Below, in pieces: positions 1-12,014 of a stretch of DNA of 13,783 nt. Source of the stretch: Thermoproteota archaeon (GTDB lineage Archaea; Korarchaeota; Korarchaeia; Korarchaeales; Korarchaeaceae); contig JAOZFI010000038.1 of NCBI GenBank assembly GCA_027491395.1, positions 1-13,783 of the forward strand, written 5' to 3'. The notes below the pieces were generated by a model, which was given only the letters and a program-made list of their open reading frames with translations, was not told the DNA's origin and did not search any database. Position numbers and translations under genes: made by a program. Numbering within the stretch: position 1 is the first letter of the stretch; each line of letters starts with the position of its first letter.

Positions 1-473
1 CCCTGAGGGAGGTCCTCTCCAGAGTTGAGAGACTGGTGAACGTGGAGATAAAAGAGGAGAGGGCTGCTGAGAGATGCGTTCAGGTGGTGAGAGAGACTGG
101 CTCCTCAGACCGTGTCCTCTACTCGTCCTTTAACGTTGATGCCCTGAGGAGGGTGAGATCCCTCGACTCTGAAGCGAGGCTCGGCCTCCTTATAGATAGG
201 GAGGAGATGCTCGCCGAGATCCCCTCACTCACCAAGGAGCTGAGGCTTTTCTCCGTGAATGCTCCTGTGGAGGGAGTTGACCTCCTCGGTATTGAGGGCT
301 TCGCCGCTGCATCGGAGATGCTCAGGAGTTTGGGGCTCAGGCTGATATTGTGGGCTGCTAACGATGAGCGCCTCCATCAGCTGCTGCCCGAACTGGCTGG
401 CACTTTCGACGCGGTCATCACCGACGATCCGCCCAAGGCACTGAGGCTGCTGAGGGGCATGGGCCTGAGGTAG
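1..473 (+). CDS. glpQ: Glycerophosphodiester phosphodiesterase (GDPD family), 5'-truncated by the window edge
   Basis: Frame is open from position 3 (LREVLSRVERLVNVEIKE). GDPD motifs: LxEVL...NVEIK, YSSFN, W(A)AND, AVITDDP. Lies directly upstream of the G3P dehydrogenase genes. The ORF-track start at 36 is internal. Confidence 0.88.
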   Translation, partial: LREVLSRVERLVNVEIKEERAAERCVQVVRETGSSDRVLYSSFNVDALRRVRSLDSEARLGLLIDREEMLAEIPSLTKELRLFSVNAPVEGVDLLGIEGFAAASEMLRSLGLRLILWAANDERLHQLLPELAGTFDAVITDDPPKALRLLRGMGLR

Positions 474-489
474 GTTAGGGTTAGGTCCC

Positions 490-1911
490 ATGAGAGTCGC
501 TATCATCGGCGCTGGAATCGTGGGGGCCAGCATAGCTAGGGAGCTTAGCCGGTACGAGGTAGAGGTCCATCTAGTGGAGAGGGAAGCTGACGTCGGTTGG
601 GGAGTGAGCAAGGCGAATACGGGTCTCATCCACGCTGGATACGATGATGACCCGGAAAGATTTCCCAACAGGGCAAGGCTCTGTGTCGAAGGAAACAGGA
701 TCTGGCATAGATGGGTGGAGGAGCTGGACATCCCCCACGCTTGGAGCGGTGCCCTCGTAATAGCTAAGGAAGAGTCGGAGGTGAAGGTGTTAGAGGGGCT
801 CTTGAGGAGGGGCGAGAGGAATAGGGTCCCGGAGCTGAGGATATTGGAGAGGGATGAGGCTCTCTCGATGGAACCTAACTTAGTGAAGGTGGAGGCCGCC
901 CTCTACGCTCCCACCGTCGGTCAGATCTCACCGCCTCAGGCGGTGATCGCGTTGGTGGAGAATGCAGTCGACAACGGGGTGAAGGTGCACCTCGACACGG
1001 AGGTCAGGGGAGTGGAGGTGAGTGGGGAGAAGGTGAGAGGGTTAAGGACTAGCGCGGGATTCTTGGAGGCTGATATCGTGATAAACGCCGCTGGACTATA
1101 CGCTGACGAGATTTCAAGAGAGGTAGGGGCCGATTACTTCGAGATAAGACCGAGAAAGGGTGAATACCTCATATTTGACGAGGATGCTGGTCCTAAGCCA
1201 TCTAGAGTTCTCTTCCCCACCCCCAGCGAGAGGAGCAAGGGAGTCGTGGTCACAACCGAGGTACAGGGCCATCTGATGGTGGGACCGAACGCTCAGGACC
1301 TCCCGAAGGAGGAGAAGGATGACAGGAGCACCACTCCAAAGGGACTGAGAGAGATCTACAAGAAAGCATCAGAGATTTGGCCCCTCCCTCCCCTTAACAA
1401 GGTGATAAGGACCTTCTCCGGTCTGAGGCCGGAGCCAACGGGAGGGGACTTCGTGATCAGGGCTGAGGATGTTTGGGGATTCGTGAACGTAGCTGGCATG
1501 AGGTCTCCAGGGCTGACGGCAGCCCCGGCAGTCGCCAAGGAAGTGGCCAGGATACTTGCGGGGATGGGCATCGACCTGAGGGAGAAGACGAAGTGGAAGG
1601 TCAGGAGGAGGGGGATCCACGGGAATAGAGCCGGTCAGGGAAGGGTGATCTGCCGGTGTAACCTAGTCAGGGAGCCCGAAATAAGGGAGGCAATCAGGAG
1701 GATGAAGCGGATAGGGGTGAAGACCCCGAGCGTGGATTCCGTCAAGTTCAGGACCTCAGCAACCACGGGCACGTGTCAAGGATCCTTCTGCAGGATAGAA
1801 ATAGCTAGTATACTGGCCGAGGAGTTCAACTCTCCACTCTGGGATGTCACTCTGAAGGGAAGGGGAAGCGAACTGGGAGTAGGCGACGTGAAGGTCCTCC
1901 TAAGGCGATAG
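490..1911 (+). CDS. glpA: FAD-dependent glycerol-3-phosphate dehydrogenase (GlpA-like) with C-terminal BFD-like [2Fe-2S] domain
   Basis: GAGIVG Rossmann motif, SKANTGLIHAG, NAAGLYAD, PRKGEY, FSGLRP, GMRSPGLTAAPA. C-terminal CRCN...GTCQGSFC Cys cluster. Context: GDPD upstream, oxidoreductase and DUF1667 downstream. Confidence 0.85.
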   Translation: MRVAIIGAGIVGASIARELSRYEVEVHLVEREADVGWGVSKANTGLIHAGYDDDPERFPNRARLCVEGNRIWHRWVEELDIPHAWSGALVIAKEESEVKVLEGLLRRGERNRVPELRILERDEALSMEPNLVKVEAALYAPTVGQISPPQAVIALVENAVDNGVKVHLDTEVRGVEVSGEKVRGLRTSAGFLEADIVINAAGLYADEISREVGADYFEIRPRKGEYLIFDEDAGPKPSRVLFPTPSERSKGVVVTTEVQGHLMVGPNAQDLPKEEKDDRSTTPKGLREIYKKASEIWPLPPLNKVIRTFSGLRPEPTGGDFVIRAEDVWGFVNVAGMRSPGLTAAPAVAKEVARILAGMGIDLREKTKWKVRRRGIHGNRAGQGRVICRCNLVREPEIREAIRRMKRIGVKTPSVDSVKFRTSATTGTCQGSFCRIEIASILAEEFNSPLWDVTLKGRGSELGVGDVKVLLRR

Positions 1912-1912
1912 C

Positions 1913-3133
1913 ATGATGTACGACGTGGTGGTCGTGGGTGGCGGTCCAGCCGGGCTGGCCGCGGCTTCTGAGTCATCCAAGCTGGGGTTAGGGACCCTCC
2001 TCTTGGACGAGAACCCCAGACTGGGTGGCATACTTCCCCAGTGCATTCATCCCGGATTCGGTCTCCACTGCCTCGGGGAGGACCTGACCGGACCCGAGTT
2101 CGCGCACCGCCTGATCGAGGAGGTAAGGAGGAGCGATGTGGAGGTTAAGACCCAAGCTCATGTCACCTCCTTAGCGATGAGATCCGACCTGGTCAAGGAG
2201 GTTACCTACGCATCGCCTCAGGGCACCGAGGCTGTGCAGGCCAAGGCGGTGATTTACGCTGCGGGGGCGAGGGAGAGGCACAGGTTCGAGGTGGGGATAG
2301 CAGGCGACAGGGTGGCTGGCATCTACACCGCAGGAGAGGCCCAAGCTATGATGGACCTCTACGGGGTCATGCCCGGGAGGAGGGTCGTCATCGTAGGCTC
2401 CGGGGACGTGGGCCTGATAATGGCGAGGAGGTTCGCCCTTGAGGGGGCGGAGGTGGTTGGCGTCGTGGAGATGCTGCCATACCCCGGTGGGTTGGCGAGG
2501 AACCTCATGATCCTCAGGGACTTCGACATACCCCTTTACCTGAGCCACAAGGTGACGGAGGTCAGGGGGAGGGGCAGGGTCGAGCGAGTTAAAGTGGTGA
2601 GGGTCGATGAAGAGCTGAGGGAGACTGGCGAGGGCTTCTGGATGGAGTGCGACACCCTCCTCATATCCGCTGGCCTAGTTCCCAGAGTTAAGATCCTGAG
2701 GAGGGCCGGAGCGATAATCGATCCCGCCACCGGCGGGCCGGTGGTCAACGACAGGCTTGAAACCACATTGCCTGGAGTGTTCGCCGCAGGCAACTCCCTG
2801 ATCATAAATGATCTGGTGGATTACGCCGTTGAGCAGGGGAGGACTGCGGCTAAAGGTGCCGGGGAGTTCGTCAGAGGGAATGGTATCCCGACTAGGAGGT
2901 GGATCAGGGTCAGGAGAGAGGGGAATGTCAGGTTCGTCGTCCCTCACATGCTGGGAGGAGACAGGGATGTCTGGCTCTACACCAGGGTGTCGAGGCCTGT
3001 GGAGGACGCGCTGGTGGAGGTACCCGAGATCGGTCTGAGGAGGAAGGTGCCGGTGCTTAAACCGTCTGAGATGCTCAGGCTCAGGATCAAGGCGGAAGTT
3101 GAGGGAGGAAGGGTCACGCTGGTGATTAAATGA
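1913..3133 (+). CDS. NAD(P)/FAD-dependent oxidoreductase (NADH oxidase-like partner of the G3P dehydrogenase)
   Basis: GGGPAG FAD motif, GGILPQCIHPGFG, LTGPEF, GARER, GSGDVG NAD(P) motif, GVFAAGN. Starts 1 nt after the previous stop. Confidence 0.88.
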   Translation: MMYDVVVVGGGPAGLAAASESSKLGLGTLLLDENPRLGGILPQCIHPGFGLHCLGEDLTGPEFAHRLIEEVRRSDVEVKTQAHVTSLAMRSDLVKEVTYASPQGTEAVQAKAVIYAAGARERHRFEVGIAGDRVAGIYTAGEAQAMMDLYGVMPGRRVVIVGSGDVGLIMARRFALEGAEVVGVVEMLPYPGGLARNLMILRDFDIPLYLSHKVTEVRGRGRVERVKVVRVDEELRETGEGFWMECDTLLISAGLVPRVKILRRAGAIIDPATGGPVVNDRLETTLPGVFAAGNSLIINDLVDYAVEQGRTAAKGAGEFVRGNGIPTRRWIRVRREGNVRFVVPHMLGGDRDVWLYTRVSRPVEDALVEVPEIGLRRKVPVLKPSEMLRLRIKAEVEGGRVTLVIK

Positions 3134-3513
3134 CGGTCTACAAGCTTACTTGCGTGATATGCCCGCTCAGCTGCTCCGTCGAAGTGGAGGTAGAGGGAAA
3201 CAGGGTAAAGGATGTGAGGGGATTCAGCTGTACCCGGGGGAAGGAGTGGGCCGTGGAGGAGGTCCTGTCCCCTAAGAGGGTGGTCATGACAGTAATACAG
3301 GTGAGAGGTGGTAAGGAGCCCGTTGTCAGCGTGAAGACCGATTCCCCCATCCCCAAGGAAAGGATCCGTGAGTTAATGAGTTACCTAGCCACATTGGAGG
3401 TTGAGGCCCCCATCTCCATAGGTCAAGTGGTGGTAGAGCATCCTCTGGGCTTGAAGACCAAGATTGTAGCGACTGGGAGTGTAGAAGCTGTTGAAACGCG
3501 CGGGCACGCGTAG
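3130..3513 (+). CDS. DUF1667-family Cys-rich (Fe-S/metal-binding) small subunit of the G3P dehydrogenase cluster
   Basis: TCVICPLSC...GFSCTRG, then PKRVVMT, VVSVKTDSPIPKE, APISIGQVV. ATGA overlap with the previous stop indicates translational coupling. Confidence 0.85.
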   Translation: MTVYKLTCVICPLSCSVEVEVEGNRVKDVRGFSCTRGKEWAVEEVLSPKRVVMTVIQVRGGKEPVVSVKTDSPIPKERIRELMSYLATLEVEAPISIGQVVVEHPLGLKTKIVATGSVEAVETRGHA

Positions 3514-3780
3514 CTATGATAAGTGGATCGCCCATACTAGTCGGGTCGGCAGGTTTCGAGATGTGAGAGTATCGATCCCCTAAGTCTTAGGTTTAGGAGT
3601 GAATCAAATTTCTCGCGAGTTGACCTTATTTCTCCCCAGCGATCGCTTGTATGAATTCGAGTTCTCAGTCCACCCCTGTAAGGGTATTATCAGGTTGTTC
3701 AACTGTGCGGTCGAGGGGGGCTAGGTAGCTATTGAGTGAGGAGAGGGATGGGACGAGTGCTCCAATGGTTGAGCGAGGAT

Positions 3781-3795
3781 GCCTTAGCGTAAGGC
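3781..3795. terminator. Short perfect hairpin GCCTTA-GCG-TAAGGC just downstream of the ABC permease stop, between convergent operons
   Basis: 6-bp inverted repeat seen directly. A terminator role is only inferred from position; there is no clear U-tract. Confidence 0.2.
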
Positions 3796-3804
3796 CCTCT
3801 TGAG

Positions 3805-4587
3805 TCACTCTAGCAGGTACCTGATGCCGTGAAACAATCTCGGCAGCGCAAGAATCATGATCGCATCTATGCCCCCCAACAGAAGCGATGCCAAGATCAG
3901 CGCCTCAGCGTTAACCGCTACGCCCCAGAAGACTTGGGCCAACACCACGATCAGTAGAGGGACTATGAGGATACCAGCGCCCTGCTGAGCCTCCTTCACG
4001 CTCCTCACCTTGGAGGAGAGAGCGCACGTTATCGCGACCGCCAAGAAGGAGTACAGGGGGGATATGATGAATACGACGATGATCCATTCGGGCCCGGGAG
4101 GGAACCACGGACCGTTGAATATGTCAGAGGACAGGAGGTTCACCGTGGGAACCATCAGCAGGAAAGTCGTCCAAGAAGAGACGACTCCGGGAACGAGGGC
4201 GGCGAGCACCTTCCCTAGGAGGAGCTCCCTCTCGTCAAGGGGAGCGGCAAGCAGTAGTTCTAGAGTGCCTCTCTCCCTCTCCCCCGCGAACCCATCGGCG
4301 GCGAGTATGGTGGATACTGCTAGGGGGATAACTAAGAAGATGAGAGGCACGACAGCCTGGAATGCGAAGTAGAGGGACCTAGCCAAGTCCCCTTCCACCC
4401 TTATCGGGAGGGGTATGTTGACTGGGATGAACACCTCACCAGTCGCCTTGGCCGCGTATATCAGGATGGCTGGCAGTGCGATTCCGAAGTAGGCGACGAG
4501 AAAGACTGAGGGGGCGACCATCCACATCCCCCTCATGGCCTCTCTCCAATCCTTCCTAGCCACTGCTAGAATCCTGCCCCACTTCAT
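3805..4587 (-). CDS. ABC-2 type exporter permease
   Basis: About 6 hydrophobic segments. VARKDWRE N-terminal motif, AGERERGTLELLLAAPL...LLGKVLA, SSKVRSVKEAQQ. Overlaps the 3' end of the ATPase gene by 32 nt. Confidence 0.92.
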   Translation of the reverse strand: MKWGRILAVARKDWREAMRGMWMVAPSVFLVAYFGIALPAILIYAAKATGEVFIPVNIPLPIRVEGDLARSLYFAFQAVVPLIFLVIPLAVSTILAADGFAGERERGTLELLLAAPLDERELLLGKVLAALVPGVVSSWTTFLLMVPTVNLLSSDIFNGPWFPPGPEWIIVVFIISPLYSFLAVAITCALSSKVRSVKEAQQGAGILIVPLLIVVLAQVFWGVAVNAEALILASLLLGGIDAIMILALPRLFHGIRYLLE

Positions 4588-5491
4588 CTCTGACCACCCT
4601 CGCGAAGAGCTCCTCCAGCTCGGGCCTCACCACGCTGATCTCGAGGATACGTCCTCCGGCCCTGACGACAGCCTCGCTGATCGCGGGAACCGTTCTCTCG
4701 GGATCCATGACCTCTATCAAGATCTCCCCATCCCTCCGCTCTAAGGTAATGACGCCGTAAACCGATTGAATGGCTTCCAGCACCTCTTTCCTTGCCTCAT
4801 CTAGCAGCAACCTGACCCTAGGAGGCCCCATGAACTTCGTGGACAGTTCATCCACCGATCCCAGTGCTAGGAGCCTAGTGTTGATCATTGCAACTCTGTG
4901 ACAGAGTTGCTGGACCTCCCAGAGGTTGTGGGAGCTTAGCAGGATCGTCCTGCCCTGAGAGGAGAGATCCTGTATCAGGGACCTCATCACTCCAGCACTC
5001 ATGGGATCCAAGCCCGATGTGGGCTCATCCAACAGGAGGACCAGGGGATCGTGCAGCAGGGCCCTGACTATCGAAACCCTCTGCTTCAAACCCTTGGATA
5101 GCTTGGAAACTGGTTCTTCAGCTCTATCTTGGATCTCCAGCTTGTTAAGGAGCTCCTTTATCTTTAGCACCGGTTCCTCGACCTCGTAAAGGCGAGCGAA
5201 GAAGAGAAGGTTCTCCATAACTGTGAGCCTCTCGTACAGGGAGATCCTCTCGGGTAAGAGGCCGACGCTGGCCTTCACCGATAGGGGATCTTCGACCACT
5301 TCGTGGCCGTTTACCACTATTCTCCCGGAGTCCGGTGGGATAATGCAGGCGAGTATCCTTATTGTGGTCGTCTTTCCGGCTCCGTTGGGCCCTAAAAGTC
5401 CGAATATCTCTCCTCTCCGCACGGAGAAACTCAGGTCTTGGGCTGCAACCTTCTCCCCGTAGGCCTTGGTGAGGCCGTGCACCTCTATCAC
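4556..5491 (-). CDS. ABC-2 type (multidrug/peptide) exporter ATP-binding subunit
   Basis: Walker A GPNGAGKTT, signature LSKGLKQ, Walker B LLLLDEP, H-loop SSH, C-terminal ...PELEELF domain. GTG start preceded by AGGTGG RBS. Confidence 0.95.
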   Translation of the reverse strand: MIEVHGLTKAYGEKVAAQDLSFSVRRGEIFGLLGPNGAGKTTTIRILACIIPPDSGRIVVNGHEVVEDPLSVKASVGLLPERISLYERLTVMENLLFFARLYEVEEPVLKIKELLNKLEIQDRAEEPVSKLSKGLKQRVSIVRALLHDPLVLLLDEPTSGLDPMSAGVMRSLIQDLSSQGRTILLSSHNLWEVQQLCHRVAMINTRLLALGSVDELSTKFMGPPRVRLLLDEARKEVLEAIQSVYGVITLERRDGEILIEVMDPERTVPAISEAVVRAGGRILEISVVRPELEELFARVVRDEVGQDSSSG

Positions 5492-5497
5492 ATTGCC

Positions 5498-5520
5498 ACC
5501 TACTACATTATGTAGTAGGT
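5498..5520. promoter_or_regulatory. Operator 1 (ACCTACTACAT-T-ATGTAGTAGGT), putative BlaI-family binding site over the ABC exporter transcription start
   Basis: Perfect inverted repeat with 11-bp arms. Core TACTAC-N5-GTAGTA at 5501-5517. Lies between the minus-strand TATA box and the GTG start. Confidence 0.85.
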
Positions 5521-5529
5521 TATATATAT
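5520..5529 (-). promoter_or_regulatory. Archaeal TATA box for the ABC exporter operon
   Basis: Minus strand reads ATATATATAA, about 30 nt upstream of the GTG at 5491. Confidence 0.65.
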
Positions 5530-5564
5530 CGTTTCGTGATAGGGGTCAAAAGCAAATGCGATGA

Positions 5565-5570
5565 TTTAAA
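5565..5570 (+). promoter_or_regulatory. Archaeal TATA box (TTTAAA) for the blaI-protease operon, probably giving a leaderless transcript
   Basis: TTTAAA lies 21-26 nt upstream of ATG 5591. No RBS is visible before the ATG. Confidence 0.6.
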
Positions 5571-5574
5571 TTGC

Positions 5575-5591
5575 TACTACGTCATGTAGTA
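5575..5591. promoter_or_regulatory. Operator 2 (TACTAC-GTCAT-GTAGTA), putative autoregulatory BlaI site
   Basis: Same TACTAC-N5-GTAGTA core as operator 1. Its last base is the A of the repressor ATG. Confidence 0.85.
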
Positions 5592-5983
5592 TGATGGGCA
5601 GGGAGCCCCTCGAACCTAAAGTGATGGAGATACTCTTCCGAAAGGGAGAGGCGACGGTACGGGAGATTCTCGAGGAGATAAACAGGGACAAGGAGAGAAA
5701 GCTTTCGCTCACTACCGTTAGCACCGTGGTATCTAGGTTATACAGGAAAGGGCTCCTGCTCAGGGAGAGCGCGAGGGGAAGAGGAGGCACTTACTACATC
5801 TATAGGCCCGCGGTTACCCGTGAGGAGTATGAGCGCATGATGGTGAGAGAAGCTGTAGACAGGCTTTCCCGCATCTTGGGAAAGGTAGCACTACTCAGGT
5901 TCGTCGAGGAAAGCACCAGTCGGCTCGATGAGGAGGAGCTTAGGGAACTGTTGAGGAGGATCGAGGAGAGGGTGGAGAAGTGA
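5591..5983 (+). CDS. blaI: BlaI/MecI/CopY-family winged-helix transcriptional repressor
   Basis: LEPKVMEILF...ATVREI...LSLTTVSTVVSRLYRKGLL.R...YIYRPAVTREEY, followed by a helical dimerisation tail. Coupled to a downstream Zn protease. The symbol is a family-level call. Confidence 0.9.
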   Translation: MMGREPLEPKVMEILFRKGEATVREILEEINRDKERKLSLTTVSTVVSRLYRKGLLLRESARGRGGTYYIYRPAVTREEYERMMVREAVDRLSRILGKVALLRFVEESTSRLDEEELRELLRRIEERVEK

Positions 5984-6681
5984 TTGTTTATGTCTTGGTC
6001 ACATCGGGAGTGCTGTTATTACTCTCTCTGGAACTCAGATCGTGGATCTTGCTTCTCTCCTCCCTAGCTACAGCTTCCCTACCACTGATGGGAATCTTGG
6101 TGGGTCGGATGGTACTCTCTACCTTGAGGATAAGTTGGTTACCCCATGATCACGAACTTCACCGGATTCTAGAGGGGATCGCCCCTCCAAGGTGGAGGGT
6201 GAGGCTGGGGATAAGGCCAGGTCCTCCAGATGCCTTTGCTGCTCAGGTAGGAGTCAGGAGCGGTGCCATCGTATTGACCCATGGCATGCTGGATCTATTA
6301 AGCGAGGAAGAGTTAAAGGCTGTGCTGGCCCATGAGATGTGCCATCTGGTGGAACACCACCCGATGATAAGGATCGCAGCCCTAGCACTCAGCCTGATGA
6401 ATATTCCAGTCGGGACCATAATGGGCGCCGCCCTGTCGAGGAGGCTCGAGTACAGGGCCGACGAGTTCTCCGTATTTGTCACCGGAAGGCCCCACCACCT
6501 TGCGTCCGCTCTTGTGAAAGTGGCAGCCACTAAGACCGGAAATCCCTTCCTAGTAGCAGGATTCACCCCCTCGCTAAGGGGAATTCTCGGCTTGTTCTCT
6601 TGGAGTCCCTCCTTAAAGAGCCGATTGAGAAGGATTGAACATGTGGCACGCAAACTATCCACTGGGACGATCTCAATCTGA
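5980..6681 (+). CDS. Membrane Zn-metalloprotease, M48/M56 (BlaR1/HtpX-like), without a penicillin-binding sensor domain
   Basis: N-terminal hydrophobic segments, PDAFA, AIVLTHG, LSEEELKAVLAHEMCH (HExxH), LEYRADE, LASALVKV, PSLKSRLRRI. GTGA overlap with the blaI stop. Confidence 0.85.
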   Translation: MIVYVLVTSGVLLLLSLELRSWILLLSSLATASLPLMGILVGRMVLSTLRISWLPHDHELHRILEGIAPPRWRVRLGIRPGPPDAFAAQVGVRSGAIVLTHGMLDLLSEEELKAVLAHEMCHLVEHHPMIRIAALALSLMNIPVGTIMGAALSRRLEYRADEFSVFVTGRPHHLASALVKVAATKTGNPFLVAGFTPSLRGILGLFSWSPSLKSRLRRIEHVARKLSTGTISI

Positions 6682-6743
6682 GAGTATAATGTCCTATCCC
6701 CTTTCCAGCCAGATATGTGGAGAGAATCGTACCACCCTCTTGG

Positions 6744-6750
6744 TTTATAA
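6744..6750 (+). promoter_or_regulatory. TATA box (TTTATAA) upstream of the disrupted gene; AGGTG RBS at 6771-6775
   Basis: Spacing is about 30 nt to TTG 6781, with the RBS 5 nt before it. Confidence 0.5.
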
Positions 6751-6809
6751 GGCGCACTCGGAGAGATAGAAGGTGCTCTTTTGTTATCGAGCGAGATGGT
6801 ATTTGTTAG

Positions 6810-6829
6810 ACCACTTCTTACCACTTCTT
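6810..6829 (+). repeat. Perfect 10-bp tandem duplication ACCACTTCTT x2
   Basis: Seen directly. It shifts the reading frame of the 6781-7448 gene. Confidence 0.85.
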
Positions 6830-7188
6830 TTCGCAAAGAAGTCGAAACTTGTAGGATATAAGGATCCATGCTCCGGACAGAAGGTTTCGAGGGAAGATCT
6901 CGCCACCAAAGTCATCATGGCTGCCCTCCAATGGTTGACGAGGGAAGAAGCTCTGACCATCAGTTACATAGACAGGAAGGAGAAGGTCTCCTCCTGAGTA
7001 GAAGGGTAAGGGTACATGAGATATCGAGGAAGAGGGACATTCAGGTGGATGGACTCGAGGGAGAACTGCACAGGCTTAGTGAAGGAGAGGTCATGTTGAA
7101 GGACGTGATCTCCTCTCTAGTGGAAGGTAAGAGCGATTTCCCGCACTCGAGGGTCCTAGCTAGGGTGGAGAGGAGCCTAGAGAGGAAG

Positions 7189-7289
7189 GGTTTCGGGAGA
7201 TACAAGGGCAGGATATTAAAGATGAAGGTATCTGCAACGGGGTTGTAGAAGGTCCAGGTTTCGGGAGATACAAGGGCGGGATATTAAAG
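7189..7289 (+). repeat. 33-bp direct repeat pair (32/33 identical) flanking a 35-bp unique insert; CRISPR-like repeat-spacer-repeat
   Basis: 7189-7221 GGTTTCGGGAGATACAAGGGCAGGATATTAAAG and 7257-7289 GGTTTCGGGAGATACAAGGGCGGGATATTAAAG. Insert 7222-7256 ATGAAGGTATCTGCAACGGGGTTGTAGAAGGTCCA. Confidence refers to the repeat structure, not to a CRISPR origin. Confidence 0.92.
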
Positions 7290-7458
7290 TCCTTCAAACT
7301 TGACTGTGACAGGTTGGAAGGATCGGATCTCGAGTTCGCGGAGCTCCACTCATCCATAGATGATATGTCCAAGAGGTTCCCTGAGCTCGAAAGGGAAATA
7401 GGAAAGGTGCTCAGGTCCCTAGTGGAGTCAAACGACGACTGGGATTGATCCGATCTGC

Positions 7459-8142
7459 CTAGCTTAAGGTCAGGATACTACCTGCCATAACCTCGCATAG
7501 CTTCTCGGAATATTTCCTCCTGAGATAGCTTACGGATCCACCACCACTGCAATGGGCTGGGCATATCTTCTGGCTCATTTCAGCGAGCTCATCGAGGACG
7601 CGCTTGCTGGGCATGTGAAAGCCTCCCACAACTAAGAATACGTCGATACCGCTGGTATCCCTCGCCGTCCTGACCAAGCTATGGACCCCGGGGTGGGAGC
7701 AGCCCACCACGACTACCAACCCCTCATCAGTCGAGATCGCCAGCGCCTGCTCCGAGATCCACCCAGCGCTCAAGGGGCCCGTCAGCCAGAATCCCCTCTC
7801 CACTTCCAGAGGGGAAGAGACCGGCAAGGGATTCAGATCCCATCCCCTTAGATACCCGAGGTCCCCCGGAGGTGAGTAGACCTTCAAATCCTTGGCCACA
7901 CTACCTACGTACCGGAAGCCCCCGTAATGATCGCCGTGATGATGGCTCAGAACCGCGAAGTCGAGATGCGAGAGGTCCAAGCCCAGCCTTTCAGCGTTGA
8001 ACTTCAGAGTGGAGGGGCTCGCTCCAGCGTCGAAGAGGATCCTGCGTCCGTGAGCTTCAATGTGAGCGCTCCATCCCCACTCCCTCCTGAGGTCCTCCTT
8101 GGCCCTGTTATCCACGACCACCGTTAGCCGCACATCAGCCAC
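7459..8142 (-). CDS. Metallo-beta-lactamase-fold hydrolase, COG1237 / MJ0301-like family (cytoplasmic)
   Basis: VVVDN, EWGWS, ILFDAG, SHHHGDHYGG, EQAL, GCSHPG, GGFH, PAHCSG. Confidence 0.88.
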   Translation of the reverse strand: MADVRLTVVVDNRAKEDLRREWGWSAHIEAHGRRILFDAGASPSTLKFNAERLGLDLSHLDFAVLSHHHGDHYGGFRYVGSVAKDLKVYSPPGDLGYLRGWDLNPLPVSSPLEVERGFWLTGPLSAGWISEQALAISTDEGLVVVVGCSHPGVHSLVRTARDTSGIDVFLVVGGFHMPSKRVLDELAEMSQKICPAHCSGGGSVSYLRRKYSEKLCEVMAGSILTLS

Positions 8143-8950
8143 CCTCCCACCTTATCACAGATCCGACGTGGCCGTCCCTGTAGGCTTCGGGGAGGTGTTC
8201 CCTAATGAAGGACCTAGCCTCATCCCCGGAGCAGTGTAGGGGGTACACCTCCTTCACGCCTACTTCCTTCATCGCCTCCACTATCCTCTTTAGCCTGTCG
8301 GTACCAGCTCCGATCAGGTGGAAGCCTCCGATAACGGCATACAGGTTACCTGTCAAGTTACAGGCTCTCTCAATCATCCTTTCGATCCTAGGATGGGCGC
8401 AGCCCACAAGGAGGATCCACCCCTTCGGCCCCCTGACCAAGAGACCTTGCTCGTAAGGAGGACCATACATGGATCCCGTGGTCATTACTCCATCCGCAAG
8501 CTCCGTTGGTTCCTTTAACTCTAAGACAGTGAGCCCTCTCGCCCTATAAGACTCCAGTAAGCTCCTACTGAATCCCCAAGGGACGTAAAACTTCACCTCG
8601 GGGTTAAGTCCGAATATATAGGGCAGGCCCCCTACGTGATCCCCGTGCTCATGGGAGAGGACGATCAGTCCCACTGACGACAGGTTTACCCCGAGTGATT
8701 CGGCGTTTTTCCTTAAAATGTGAGGATCTGGGCCCGTGTCGAAGAGCACTTGAGCTCTATTGACCCTGACTAAAGCAGAAAATCCCCAAGCCGCCATGAG
8801 ACCGCCTTGAGGTGCAGGATTATTGTCGACGAGGATCACCACTTCAACCACCAAGGAGCCACCTTTAGGGCCTACGCTGGGTTCCTTGGATCTGGATGCT
8901 ACATGAAAGGGGAGGATCAGGAGGGTAGCAACCGTCAGCACCGCCGCCAA
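8135..8950 (-). CDS. Metallo-beta-lactamase-fold hydrolase, COG1237 / MJ0301-like family, with N-terminal hydrophobic leader
   Basis: ILVDN, AWGFS, VLFDTG, SHEHGDHVGG, EQGL, GCAHP, GGFH, PLHCSG. A hydrophobic N-terminus precedes the catalytic domain. The TTG start is uncertain. 8-nt overlap with the downstream paralog. Confidence 0.85.
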   Translation of the reverse strand: MAAVLTVATLLILPFHVASRSKEPSVGPKGGSLVVEVVILVDNNPAPQGGLMAAWGFSALVRVNRAQVLFDTGPDPHILRKNAESLGVNLSSVGLIVLSHEHGDHVGGLPYIFGLNPEVKFYVPWGFSRSLLESYRARGLTVLELKEPTELADGVMTTGSMYGPPYEQGLLVRGPKGWILLVGCAHPRIERMIERACNLTGNLYAVIGGFHLIGAGTDRLKRIVEAMKEVGVKEVYPLHCSGDEARSFIREHLPEAYRDGHVGSVIRWEGG

Positions 8951-11411: not shown

Positions 11412-12014
11412 TCATAGCCAGCGTCTACCCACAATCTCAGTAACCGATTCAAGTATGAGGTACCTCCGGACCTTTCCGAGAAAACTCTTAAAAGCGCGCT
11501 CCACATTATTCCCCCTGAGTGCTGAGATCTTCCAGACATCTGCTCTTATTCCCAGGAGGGGCACCATCTGCTTGGGCTCTCTGGCTATTGGGAGGTCGTG
11601 CTTATTGGAGAATATAACCAAGGGAAATCCTGACCCCAGAACTTCCCTAGCCTCTTGGTATTGCTCCATGGCATAAACTAGATGGGCAGGTTGTGTGGCA
11701 TCTATCAGAAGTATGACACCATCCTTACCCCTTAATAGGGCTTTCCTAGCTCCTGAAAAGGCTATCTGCCCCGGAGTTCCTGTTATGGTGACCTTCCATA
11801 TCTCGTTCGATGGGTCTACTGAGTCAATCTGGTCCCTCCTGTATATCCTGTTCTCCGTAGCGTCCCACAGGACTATGCCGTAGTCGAAGCCAACGGTGGT
11901 TGAGAAGGTACCCTTGGAGTAGTCCATCCTGACGGCCCAAGGATCGAGCCTCCTTATCAACGTCGATTTACCGGCCTGATGGGGTCCTATCACCACGATC
12001 TTCATCTTCTTCAT
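11412..12014 (-). CDS. Small Ras-like GTPase, MglA/CvnD-like (COG2229)
   Basis: G1 GPHQAGKST, G2 STTVGFDYG, G3 GTPGQ, LLIDAT, G4 NKHD, G5 ISAL. Confidence 0.88.
   Translation of the reverse strand: MKKMKIVVIGPHQAGKSTLIRRLDPWAVRMDYSKGTFSTTVGFDYGIVLWDATENRIYRRDQIDSVDPSNEIWKVTITGTPGQIAFSGARKALLRGKDGVILLIDATQPAHLVYAMEQYQEAREVLGSGFPLVIFSNKHDLPIAREPKQMVPLLGIRADVWKISALRGNNVERAFKSFLGKVRRYLILESVTEIVGRRWL

Follow-up and report, generated by a model that had tools for sequence, protein, structure and literature searches.

How does a stretch of protein-coding DNA in a korarchaeal genome come to hold the same 33 nucleotides twice, with 35 unrelated nucleotides between the two copies? The arrangement looks like a CRISPR repeat-spacer-repeat unit, and a sequence-only reading of this DNA had proposed that a coding stretch mimicking the host repeat captured a spacer through Cas1-Cas2, with loss of the gene and the birth of a one-spacer proto-array. 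Off-target spacer integration is a proposed birth route of new CRISPR arrays and a cost of adaptation modules, and the evidence for it has so far come mostly from overproduced E. coli proteins and from in vitro work. We describe here the footprint of the insertion, its derived state, its recurrence in the genome, the absence of a template for the inserted DNA and the CRISPR-Cas fragment carried by the host, and we weigh the processes that could have produced it.

The insertion and its ancestral site

The window, that is, the whole stretch of DNA analyzed, is the entire 13,783-bp contig C56 of genome G000, a 1.716-Mb metagenome bin of 62 contigs that is 98.41% complete and 1.93% contaminated. 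At positions 7189-7289, a repeat search identified a 33-nt direct repeat (32/33 identical, 68 nt from start to start) flanking a 35-nt insert. The unit and the gene that contains it comprise the following features.

6781..7448, plus strand: pseudogene of a 196-aa genus-restricted protein, its ancestral frame broken three times
6810..6829, plus strand: 10-bp tandem duplication (a 10-mer present twice), missing in G010, G012 and G011; +1 frameshift
6985..6986, plus strand: site of a 1-bp deletion, with a G run of 2 versus 3 in the orthologs; shifts the frame back by 1
7189..7221, plus strand: copy 1 of the duplicated 33-nt target, which retains the ancestral base at unit position 22
7222..7256, no strand: 35-nt insert, which contains the TAG (7246-7248) ending the upstream frame and is not from the host genome
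7257..7289, plus strand: copy 2 of the duplicated 33-nt target, differing from copy 1 and the orthologs at one base (A to G)

The frame-1 ORF at 6868-7248 terminates at the TAG within the insert, and the frame from 7257 continues to the TGA at 7446-7448. Taking out 68 nt rejoins the ancestral frame in the alignment with the orthologs, and the structure first described, a 33-bp repeat with one mismatch around a 35-bp insert whose removal with one copy leads the frame to TGA 7448, was thus reproduced. A chance origin of the repeat is excluded, since in the whole 1.716-Mb genome no more than 25 direct-repeat pairs share at least 14 contiguous identical nt at a spacing of 25 to 140 nt, against about 0.7 expected by arithmetic. 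With blastn-short, neither the unit nor the insert was found a second time in the host genome, where the longest other exact match is 14 nt, and no inverted repeats were found at positions 6500-8000 of the window. The features of an insertion sequence or MITE are absent at the site: the duplication is 33 nt long, and the insert is unique in the genome and unlike the two other inserts described below. A Pfam scan of the 19 ORFs of the window found no cas genes, in agreement with the sequence-only reading. That reading had also noted that the reverse strand of the insert is free of stops (WTFYNPVADTF); it does read so, and by our own reading four of the six frames are open, so that the peptide is uninformative on the origin of the insert.

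When 40 relatives were searched at the DNA level, the region turned up in five, all of them congeneric (G010, G012, G011, G002 and G006). Two of these, G002 and G006, match only the upstream sequence at this locus and were excluded from the empty-site count. In the three that cover the site, namely G010 (94 to 98% identical at the window locus), G012 and G011, the aligned orthologs have the unit once, with both halves of the query overlapping on it, and are free of the insert (3/3). The 68 bp in the window are thus a derived, lineage-specific insertion. The duplicated motif also occurs once in all eight protein homologs, and the view of the unit as a target-site duplication around an inserted segment is borne out by both sets.

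The intact gene product is 196 aa long in both G010 and G011, and in G012 its length is 206 aa. Its homologs, 8 among 530 candidates, are 193 to 206 aa long and at least 72% identical, and all belong to the genus-level group; one is recorded as hypothetical protein from a Candidatus Korarchaeota archaeon. The protein has no match to a Pfam family, and its AlphaFold2 model is poor (mean pLDDT of 44.5). The 10-bp duplication and the 1-bp deletion together add 9 nt net and leave about 55 codons between them out of frame. Since these two frame-breaking lesions come in addition to the insertion, the host gene is a pseudogene in this lineage. Compared with G010, window positions 1-6663 contain five indels, all intergenic, and this single 591-nt gene contains three that break the frame. 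For annotation purposes, the ORFs at 6868-7248 and 7314-7448 are fragments of one dead gene.

The TAG in the insert ends the frame, but the insertion need not be what killed the gene, given the two other lesions and an earlier derived change. Two nonsynonymous changes, both derived, are found in copy 1 and copy 2 of the unit alike; one affects a column that is invariant in 8/8 homologs, and changes common to both copies predate the duplication. The one extra change in copy 2 indicates that time has elapsed since the event. Against G010, the pseudogene has 9 synonymous and 6 nonsynonymous differing codons, no different from the neighboring genes; the decay is therefore recent, and the codon differences give no signal of relaxed selection relative to the neighbors.

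Exact-protein look-ups provided a view of a second assembly, in which a 131,362-bp contig has a 64-aa ORF with the frame of the 10-bp duplication and the stop made by the 1-bp deletion, together with a 44-aa C-terminal piece called as a separate ORF. The M48 protease of this assembly differs by one residue from that of the window. The 105-aa ORF that ends in the insert is recorded for the window's contig only, by look-ups that do not show the insertion state of the 131-kb contig.

As for the surroundings of the locus, a gene for a BlaI-type repressor (Penicillinase_R) and then one for a 233-aa M48 peptidase (5591-6681) form a BlaI/BlaR1-like pair directly upstream of the pseudogene, and two metallo-beta-lactamase-fold genes lie downstream on the opposite strand (7459-8950). 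In G010, about 6 kb, including a 231-aa ORF, separate the M48 protease gene from the ortholog of the pseudogene (G010:C34:2548-8619, compared with window 6663-6669), a stretch that the window, G011 and G012 are without. Farther upstream, a GDPD-family gene (3-473) precedes an operon (490-3513) encoding an FAD-dependent oxidoreductase with a BFD-like [2Fe-2S] domain, a pyridine nucleotide-disulphide oxidoreductase and a DUF1667 protein, the layout of which we take to resemble that of anaerobic glycerol-3-phosphate dehydrogenase-like clusters. The minus strand at 11412-12014 encodes a 200-aa small GTPase of the Ras/Arf type, adjoining a 256-aa protein with a weak DUF7535 match.

Recurrence in the genome and origin of the inserts

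The host genome was scanned for two-copy direct repeats of at least 20 nt at a spacing of 30 to 120 nt, and 11 pairs were obtained. Six of them, spaced by multiples of three, look like protein repeats, and two, as judged by eye, resemble tRNA T-arms. The three pairs left are lone repeat-insert-repeat units, namely that of the window (33 + 35), one at C27:14319 (30 + 36) and one at C22:34510 (23 + 36).

C22:34510-34591 (locus L033:9511-9592): second event, a 23-nt duplication around a 36-nt unique insert
C27:14319-14414 (locus L032): third event, a 30-nt exact duplication around a 36-nt unique insert

One 23-nt unit without the insert is present at the C22 site in each of G010 (97% identical), G002 and G012. 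The event lies in the 42-nt gap that separates the stop codon of an HpcH/CitE-like gene from the start of a PrpD-like one; because this stop codon is within the unit, the protein is unaltered. The C27 event is in a variable 362-nt intergenic gap, where G012 has one diverged copy of the unit. The three events thus occupy a pseudogene, a stop-to-start gap and an intergenic gap, and such harmless landing sites are what is expected of real events filtered by selection. All three units start with G in one orientation, and the three inserts are mutually unrelated and, by eye, devoid of terminal inverted repeats. No comparable lone units were found in the parts scanned of three other genomes (840 kb of G013, 477 kb of G016 and 309 kb of G010); G013, which is a finished genome, and G016 both carry cas1 and large arrays. 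The last 127 nt of contig C27 are identical to the first 127 nt of contig C48, and these two contigs are therefore probably adjacent in the genome.

The insert of the window had been called spacer-sized, which it is: its 35 nt fall within the 33 to 49 nt found in the genus, and blastn-short finds no template for it in the 98%-complete genome of the host. Against 2 kb of flanking sequence, Smith-Waterman local alignment performed no better than with shuffled sequences, 223 of 300 of which reached the observed score. With up to 3 mismatches allowed, no match was found in the 37 other genomes belonging to the order; nor was there one in phage records by blastn, or in IMG/VR viral contigs, metagenome contigs or genome contigs by exact search, which would miss sources differing by one base. 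The C22 and C27 inserts were likewise without a match in their own genome and the order's 37 other genomes (up to 3 mismatches), in IMG/VR viral contigs (exact) and in phage records, and the C22 insert was without one in genome contigs either. None of the inserts matched the spacers of the arrays retrieved from relatives. The three inserts are putatively of foreign origin.

A derivation of the inserts from pieces of CRISPR repeats was also considered and rejected as not significant, the best case being the C27 insert, which agrees with its own genome's repeat at 15/24 positions (P = 0.028 over six tests). The C27 unit had no exact match in metagenome or viral contigs that would make it a known CRISPR repeat.

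CRISPR-Cas in the host and likeness of the target sites to repeats

A CRISPR-Cas fragment is present on contig C51 (4,722 bp), which starts with 35 nt of a spacer, one 24-nt repeat and an AT-rich leader. The contig (C51:1-4722, locus L030) encodes Cas6 (Pfam E = 9e-14; PADLOC E = 1.6e-18), a 506-aa regulator with a Csa3/CasR-like HTH, and a 433-aa ORF without a family match that runs off the contig. The leader, the repeat and cas6 indicate that the organism has CRISPR-Cas and that the array is where the assembly broke. The 98.41%-complete bin gave no matches to cas1 (PF01867) or cas2 (PF09827), nor to cas4, RAMP or Cas7 (DevR), and a k-mer array finder found no arrays of at least 3 repeats. 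Of the host CRISPR machinery presumed by the sequence-only reading, the leader, the 24-nt repeat and cas6 are therefore in evidence on C51, and cas1, cas2 and cas4 are missing from the bin.

Within the genus, cas1 is present in 10 of the 20 other genomes. The arrays that adjoin it have repeats of 25 nt (G013), 24 and 25 nt (G016), 37 nt (G002) and about 34 nt (G004), with spacers mostly of 36 to 43 nt (mode, 38 to 39). The host's own repeat family occurs in 8 of the 20 other genomes, with spacers of 33 to 46 nt. A further array of this 24-nt family lies at G016:C2:343030-344633 (locus L109), away from the cas1 loci examined, and a masked run of N is present in locus L100, also in the context of G016. 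Repeats in the host and its genus thus measure 24, 25 or about 34 to 37 nt, and none measures 33 nt, so that the proposal of a repeat-length target fails for the window. The spacer range of the genus is 33 to 49 nt, and by our count 15 of the 293 spacers of 24/25-nt arrays have at most 36 nt; the 35-nt insert of the window is inside this range, but in its short tail. The host array itself is cut after 35 nt of one spacer. In length, the 23-nt duplication on C22 nearly matches the 24-nt host repeat, and the 30-nt duplication on C27 does not.

The units resemble CRISPR repeats weakly, and to a degree that depends on the test used. Compared with the repeats of the genus, the window unit ranks in the top 1.2% (gapped) or the top 0.9% (end-anchored) of random 33-mers from its own genome, but an ungapped test gives P = 0.30; all of these measures were chosen post hoc. 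The proposed mimicry of the host repeat by this coding stretch is weak. The site in the window agrees with the host leader-repeat junction at 9/18 positions (null P = 0.02, with a measure chosen after seeing the data), and the C22 junction, in minus orientation, agrees at 10/18 (per-test null P = 0.005; six tests). At one end, 11/14 bases are common to the window and C27 units (per-pair null P = 0.002; three pairs), a motif found 7 more times in the genome without an insertion. Two lineage-specific substitutions bring the window unit closer to all five repeats compared. The end shared with C27 and these repeat-ward substitutions would lean toward a CRISPR origin of the events.

Discussion

Three unrelated inserts without a template, each within a duplication of 23 to 33 bp, point to a measured cargo and a widely staggered cut. 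Because the cargo is nearly fixed at 35 to 36 nt, as for a spacer, and the duplications far exceed those of transposons, Cas1-Cas2 is the most likely enzyme; among known enzymes, it is the one whose action produces a footprint of this kind. Our current best reading, which we consider about evenly poised between right and wrong, is thus an off-target integration of the Cas1-Cas2 type in which the length of the window duplication fits poorly. A staggered cut 33 bp wide would have been made in the chromosome, as its footprint suggests, a 35-nt piece of non-host DNA would have been joined into the cut, and gap filling would then have duplicated the 33 bp. The same process would have taken place at least twice more in this genome, with 23 + 36 nt on C22 and 30 + 36 nt on C27. 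The enzyme would be the Cas1-Cas2 adaptation integrase, which, acting off target, would leave one-spacer "neo-CRISPR" units, and a flexible choice of the second cut may account for duplications of 23 to 33 bp next to a repeat of 24 bp. The C22 event fits this reading well, and the window event fits it poorly in length (33 versus 24). That the two copies of the window unit differ at one base and that the second assembly has the other two lesions of the pseudogene count in its favor, since they argue for an inherited event.

Several observations count against Cas1-Cas2. The bin contains no cas1, cas2, cas4, RAMP or DevR gene; the duplications vary (23, 30 and 33) while the inserts are constant, which is the reverse of what a repeat-length ruler predicts; the 33 nt duplicated in the window equal no repeat of the host or genus; and the collections searched yielded no protospacer for the three inserts. 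The inserts also lie in the short tail of the spacer lengths of the genus, the likeness of the units to repeats is weak, and the scanned parts of G013, G016 and G010 gave no event of this build. The length of the window duplication and the missing cas1 are the main problems.

How far such departures are known from other systems can be judged in part from published work. In E. coli, neo-CRISPR loci were reported to form in vivo, and circumstantial evidence was given for two further species (Nivala, Shipman and Church 2018, as described in PMC9456107, PMC7054753 and bioRxiv 10.1101/148544). As those descriptions present them, neo-CRISPR loci share with the units described here a spacer-sized insert in directly duplicated, ordinary chromosomal DNA outside arrays, and one of our events interrupts a gene. 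They differ in that our duplications are 33, 30 and 23 nt for a host repeat of 24 nt, without cas1-cas2 in the bin or a protospacer, and in that the work was done with E. coli overproducing Cas1-Cas2, whereas ours concerns an uncultured korarchaeon. In vitro, Cas1-Cas2 of P. furiosus integrates at non-CRISPR sites with repeat-like borders (Grainy et al. 2019, PMC6698737). The paired off-target cuts reported there are 30 to 31 bp apart, which is the repeat length, and G is preferred at the integration point (PMC6698737). All three of our units likewise begin with G in one orientation, but their spacing is 23 to 33 bp for a 24-nt repeat, unlike the repeat-length spacing of that report (PMC6698737). 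In the type I-B system of Haloarcula hispanica, the distal cut was described as measured by a ruler anchored on an internal motif and not on the first cut (Wang et al. 2016, PMC4872114). Shifting the motif in engineered repeats gave duplications of 29 to 33 bp for a 30-bp repeat, a departure of at most 3 bp, and inserting at least 4 nt between the motifs abolished integration (PMC4872114). This example shows that duplications may depart from the repeat length (PMC4872114); the departure in the window would be 9 bp, and no anchor motif was identified here. Among the results of PMC4872114 and PMC6698737 considered here, a 9-bp departure from the repeat length is without precedent. Transposons and insertion sequences also flank the DNA that they insert with direct target duplications, which according to PMC4872114 reach at most about 9 to 12 bp; those found here are 23 to 33 bp, and the inserts are non-coding, mutually unrelated and without terminal inverted repeats.

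The absence of cas1 from the bin invites explanations that dispense with Cas1. An accident of break repair or replication without any integrase seems to us rather unlikely: two nearby nicks or a stalled fork would leave long overhangs, the fill-in of which would duplicate 23 to 33 bp, and, in variants covered by the same judgment, a stray fragment of DNA or cDNA would be captured as filler or the polymerase would switch template and return upstream. The slippage-type lesions of the same gene (the 10-bp tandem duplication and the 1-bp deletion in a G run), the bin without cas1 or cas2 and the variable length of the duplications all agree with such an accident. Template switching should leave its template, however, and none exists for three inserts in a 98%-complete genome, and unmeasured capture would not readily give fillers of 35, 36 and 36 nt; moreover, we know of no prokaryotic repair route that gives duplications of 23 to 33 bp. 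An undescribed Cas1-independent integrase or micro-element, with a cargo of about 36 nt, long staggered cuts and targets that start with a G-T-rich G-run motif, would explain the constant cargo, the varying duplications, the common end motif of the window and C27 targets (11/14 bases), a duplication length unlike that of any repeat of the genus, and the lack of cas1 in the bin. We nevertheless hold it to be improbable: the inserts are unrelated and without terminal inverted repeats and hence do not represent one element in several copies, 7 further genomic occurrences of the shared motif have no insertion, and no candidate enzyme was identified.

An artefact of assembly or library preparation, through chimeric reads or a wrong path in the graph, has in our view only a small chance of being the answer. 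The genome is a metagenome bin of 62 contigs, nothing comparable was seen in the 840 kb scanned of the finished genome G013, and the 105-aa ORF ending in the insert is recorded for this contig only. Against this, the exact 127-nt overlap of C27 and C48 suggests a graph built with k = 127, in which each structure, of 82 to 101 nt, fits within one k-mer taken from real molecules. Three unrelated inserts are not linkers, the two copies in the window are one base apart, and all three events are at harmless places in a genome of a kind that we estimate to be about nine-tenths coding. The 131-kb contig of the second assembly, for its part, has the 10-bp duplication, the 1-bp deletion and the 44-aa C-terminal ORF. 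We find it highly improbable that the unit is a functional element, whether a nascent working CRISPR array, an archaeal bulge-helix-bulge intron or a site of translational bypass. The frame is restored by removing exactly 68 nt and the end motif of the unit is close to the 3' end of the genus repeats, but the two other frame breaks of the gene are incurable by splicing or hopping, and the C22 and C27 events are non-coding. As an array, the unit of the window has two copies only, no leader, and coding sequence on both flanks; nothing points to its working as one. Archaeal bulge-helix-bulge motifs have two 3-nt bulges separated by a 4-bp helix, at both splice sites and with flanking helices. When all registers at a spacing of 68 nt were inspected, the best had 4 central pairs, an outer helix of 2 bp and no inner helix, and an intron of this kind was rejected.

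Off-target integration by Cas1-Cas2 remains the reading that we favor, and if it is right, archaeal Cas1-Cas2 in vivo would pick its second cut by local sequence and not by a repeat-length ruler. The alternative consequence of at least three chromosomal integrations of 35- to 36-nt non-host DNA with duplications of 23 to 33 bp, that a fixed-cargo integrase unrelated to Cas1 writes spacer-sized DNA into the chromosome, strikes us as improbable; should Cas1 play no part, the footprint would indicate an enzyme as yet unknown. Three natural events in a single archaeal genome, for each of which a sister genome preserves the empty ancestral site, are substrates for asking how the second cut is placed.
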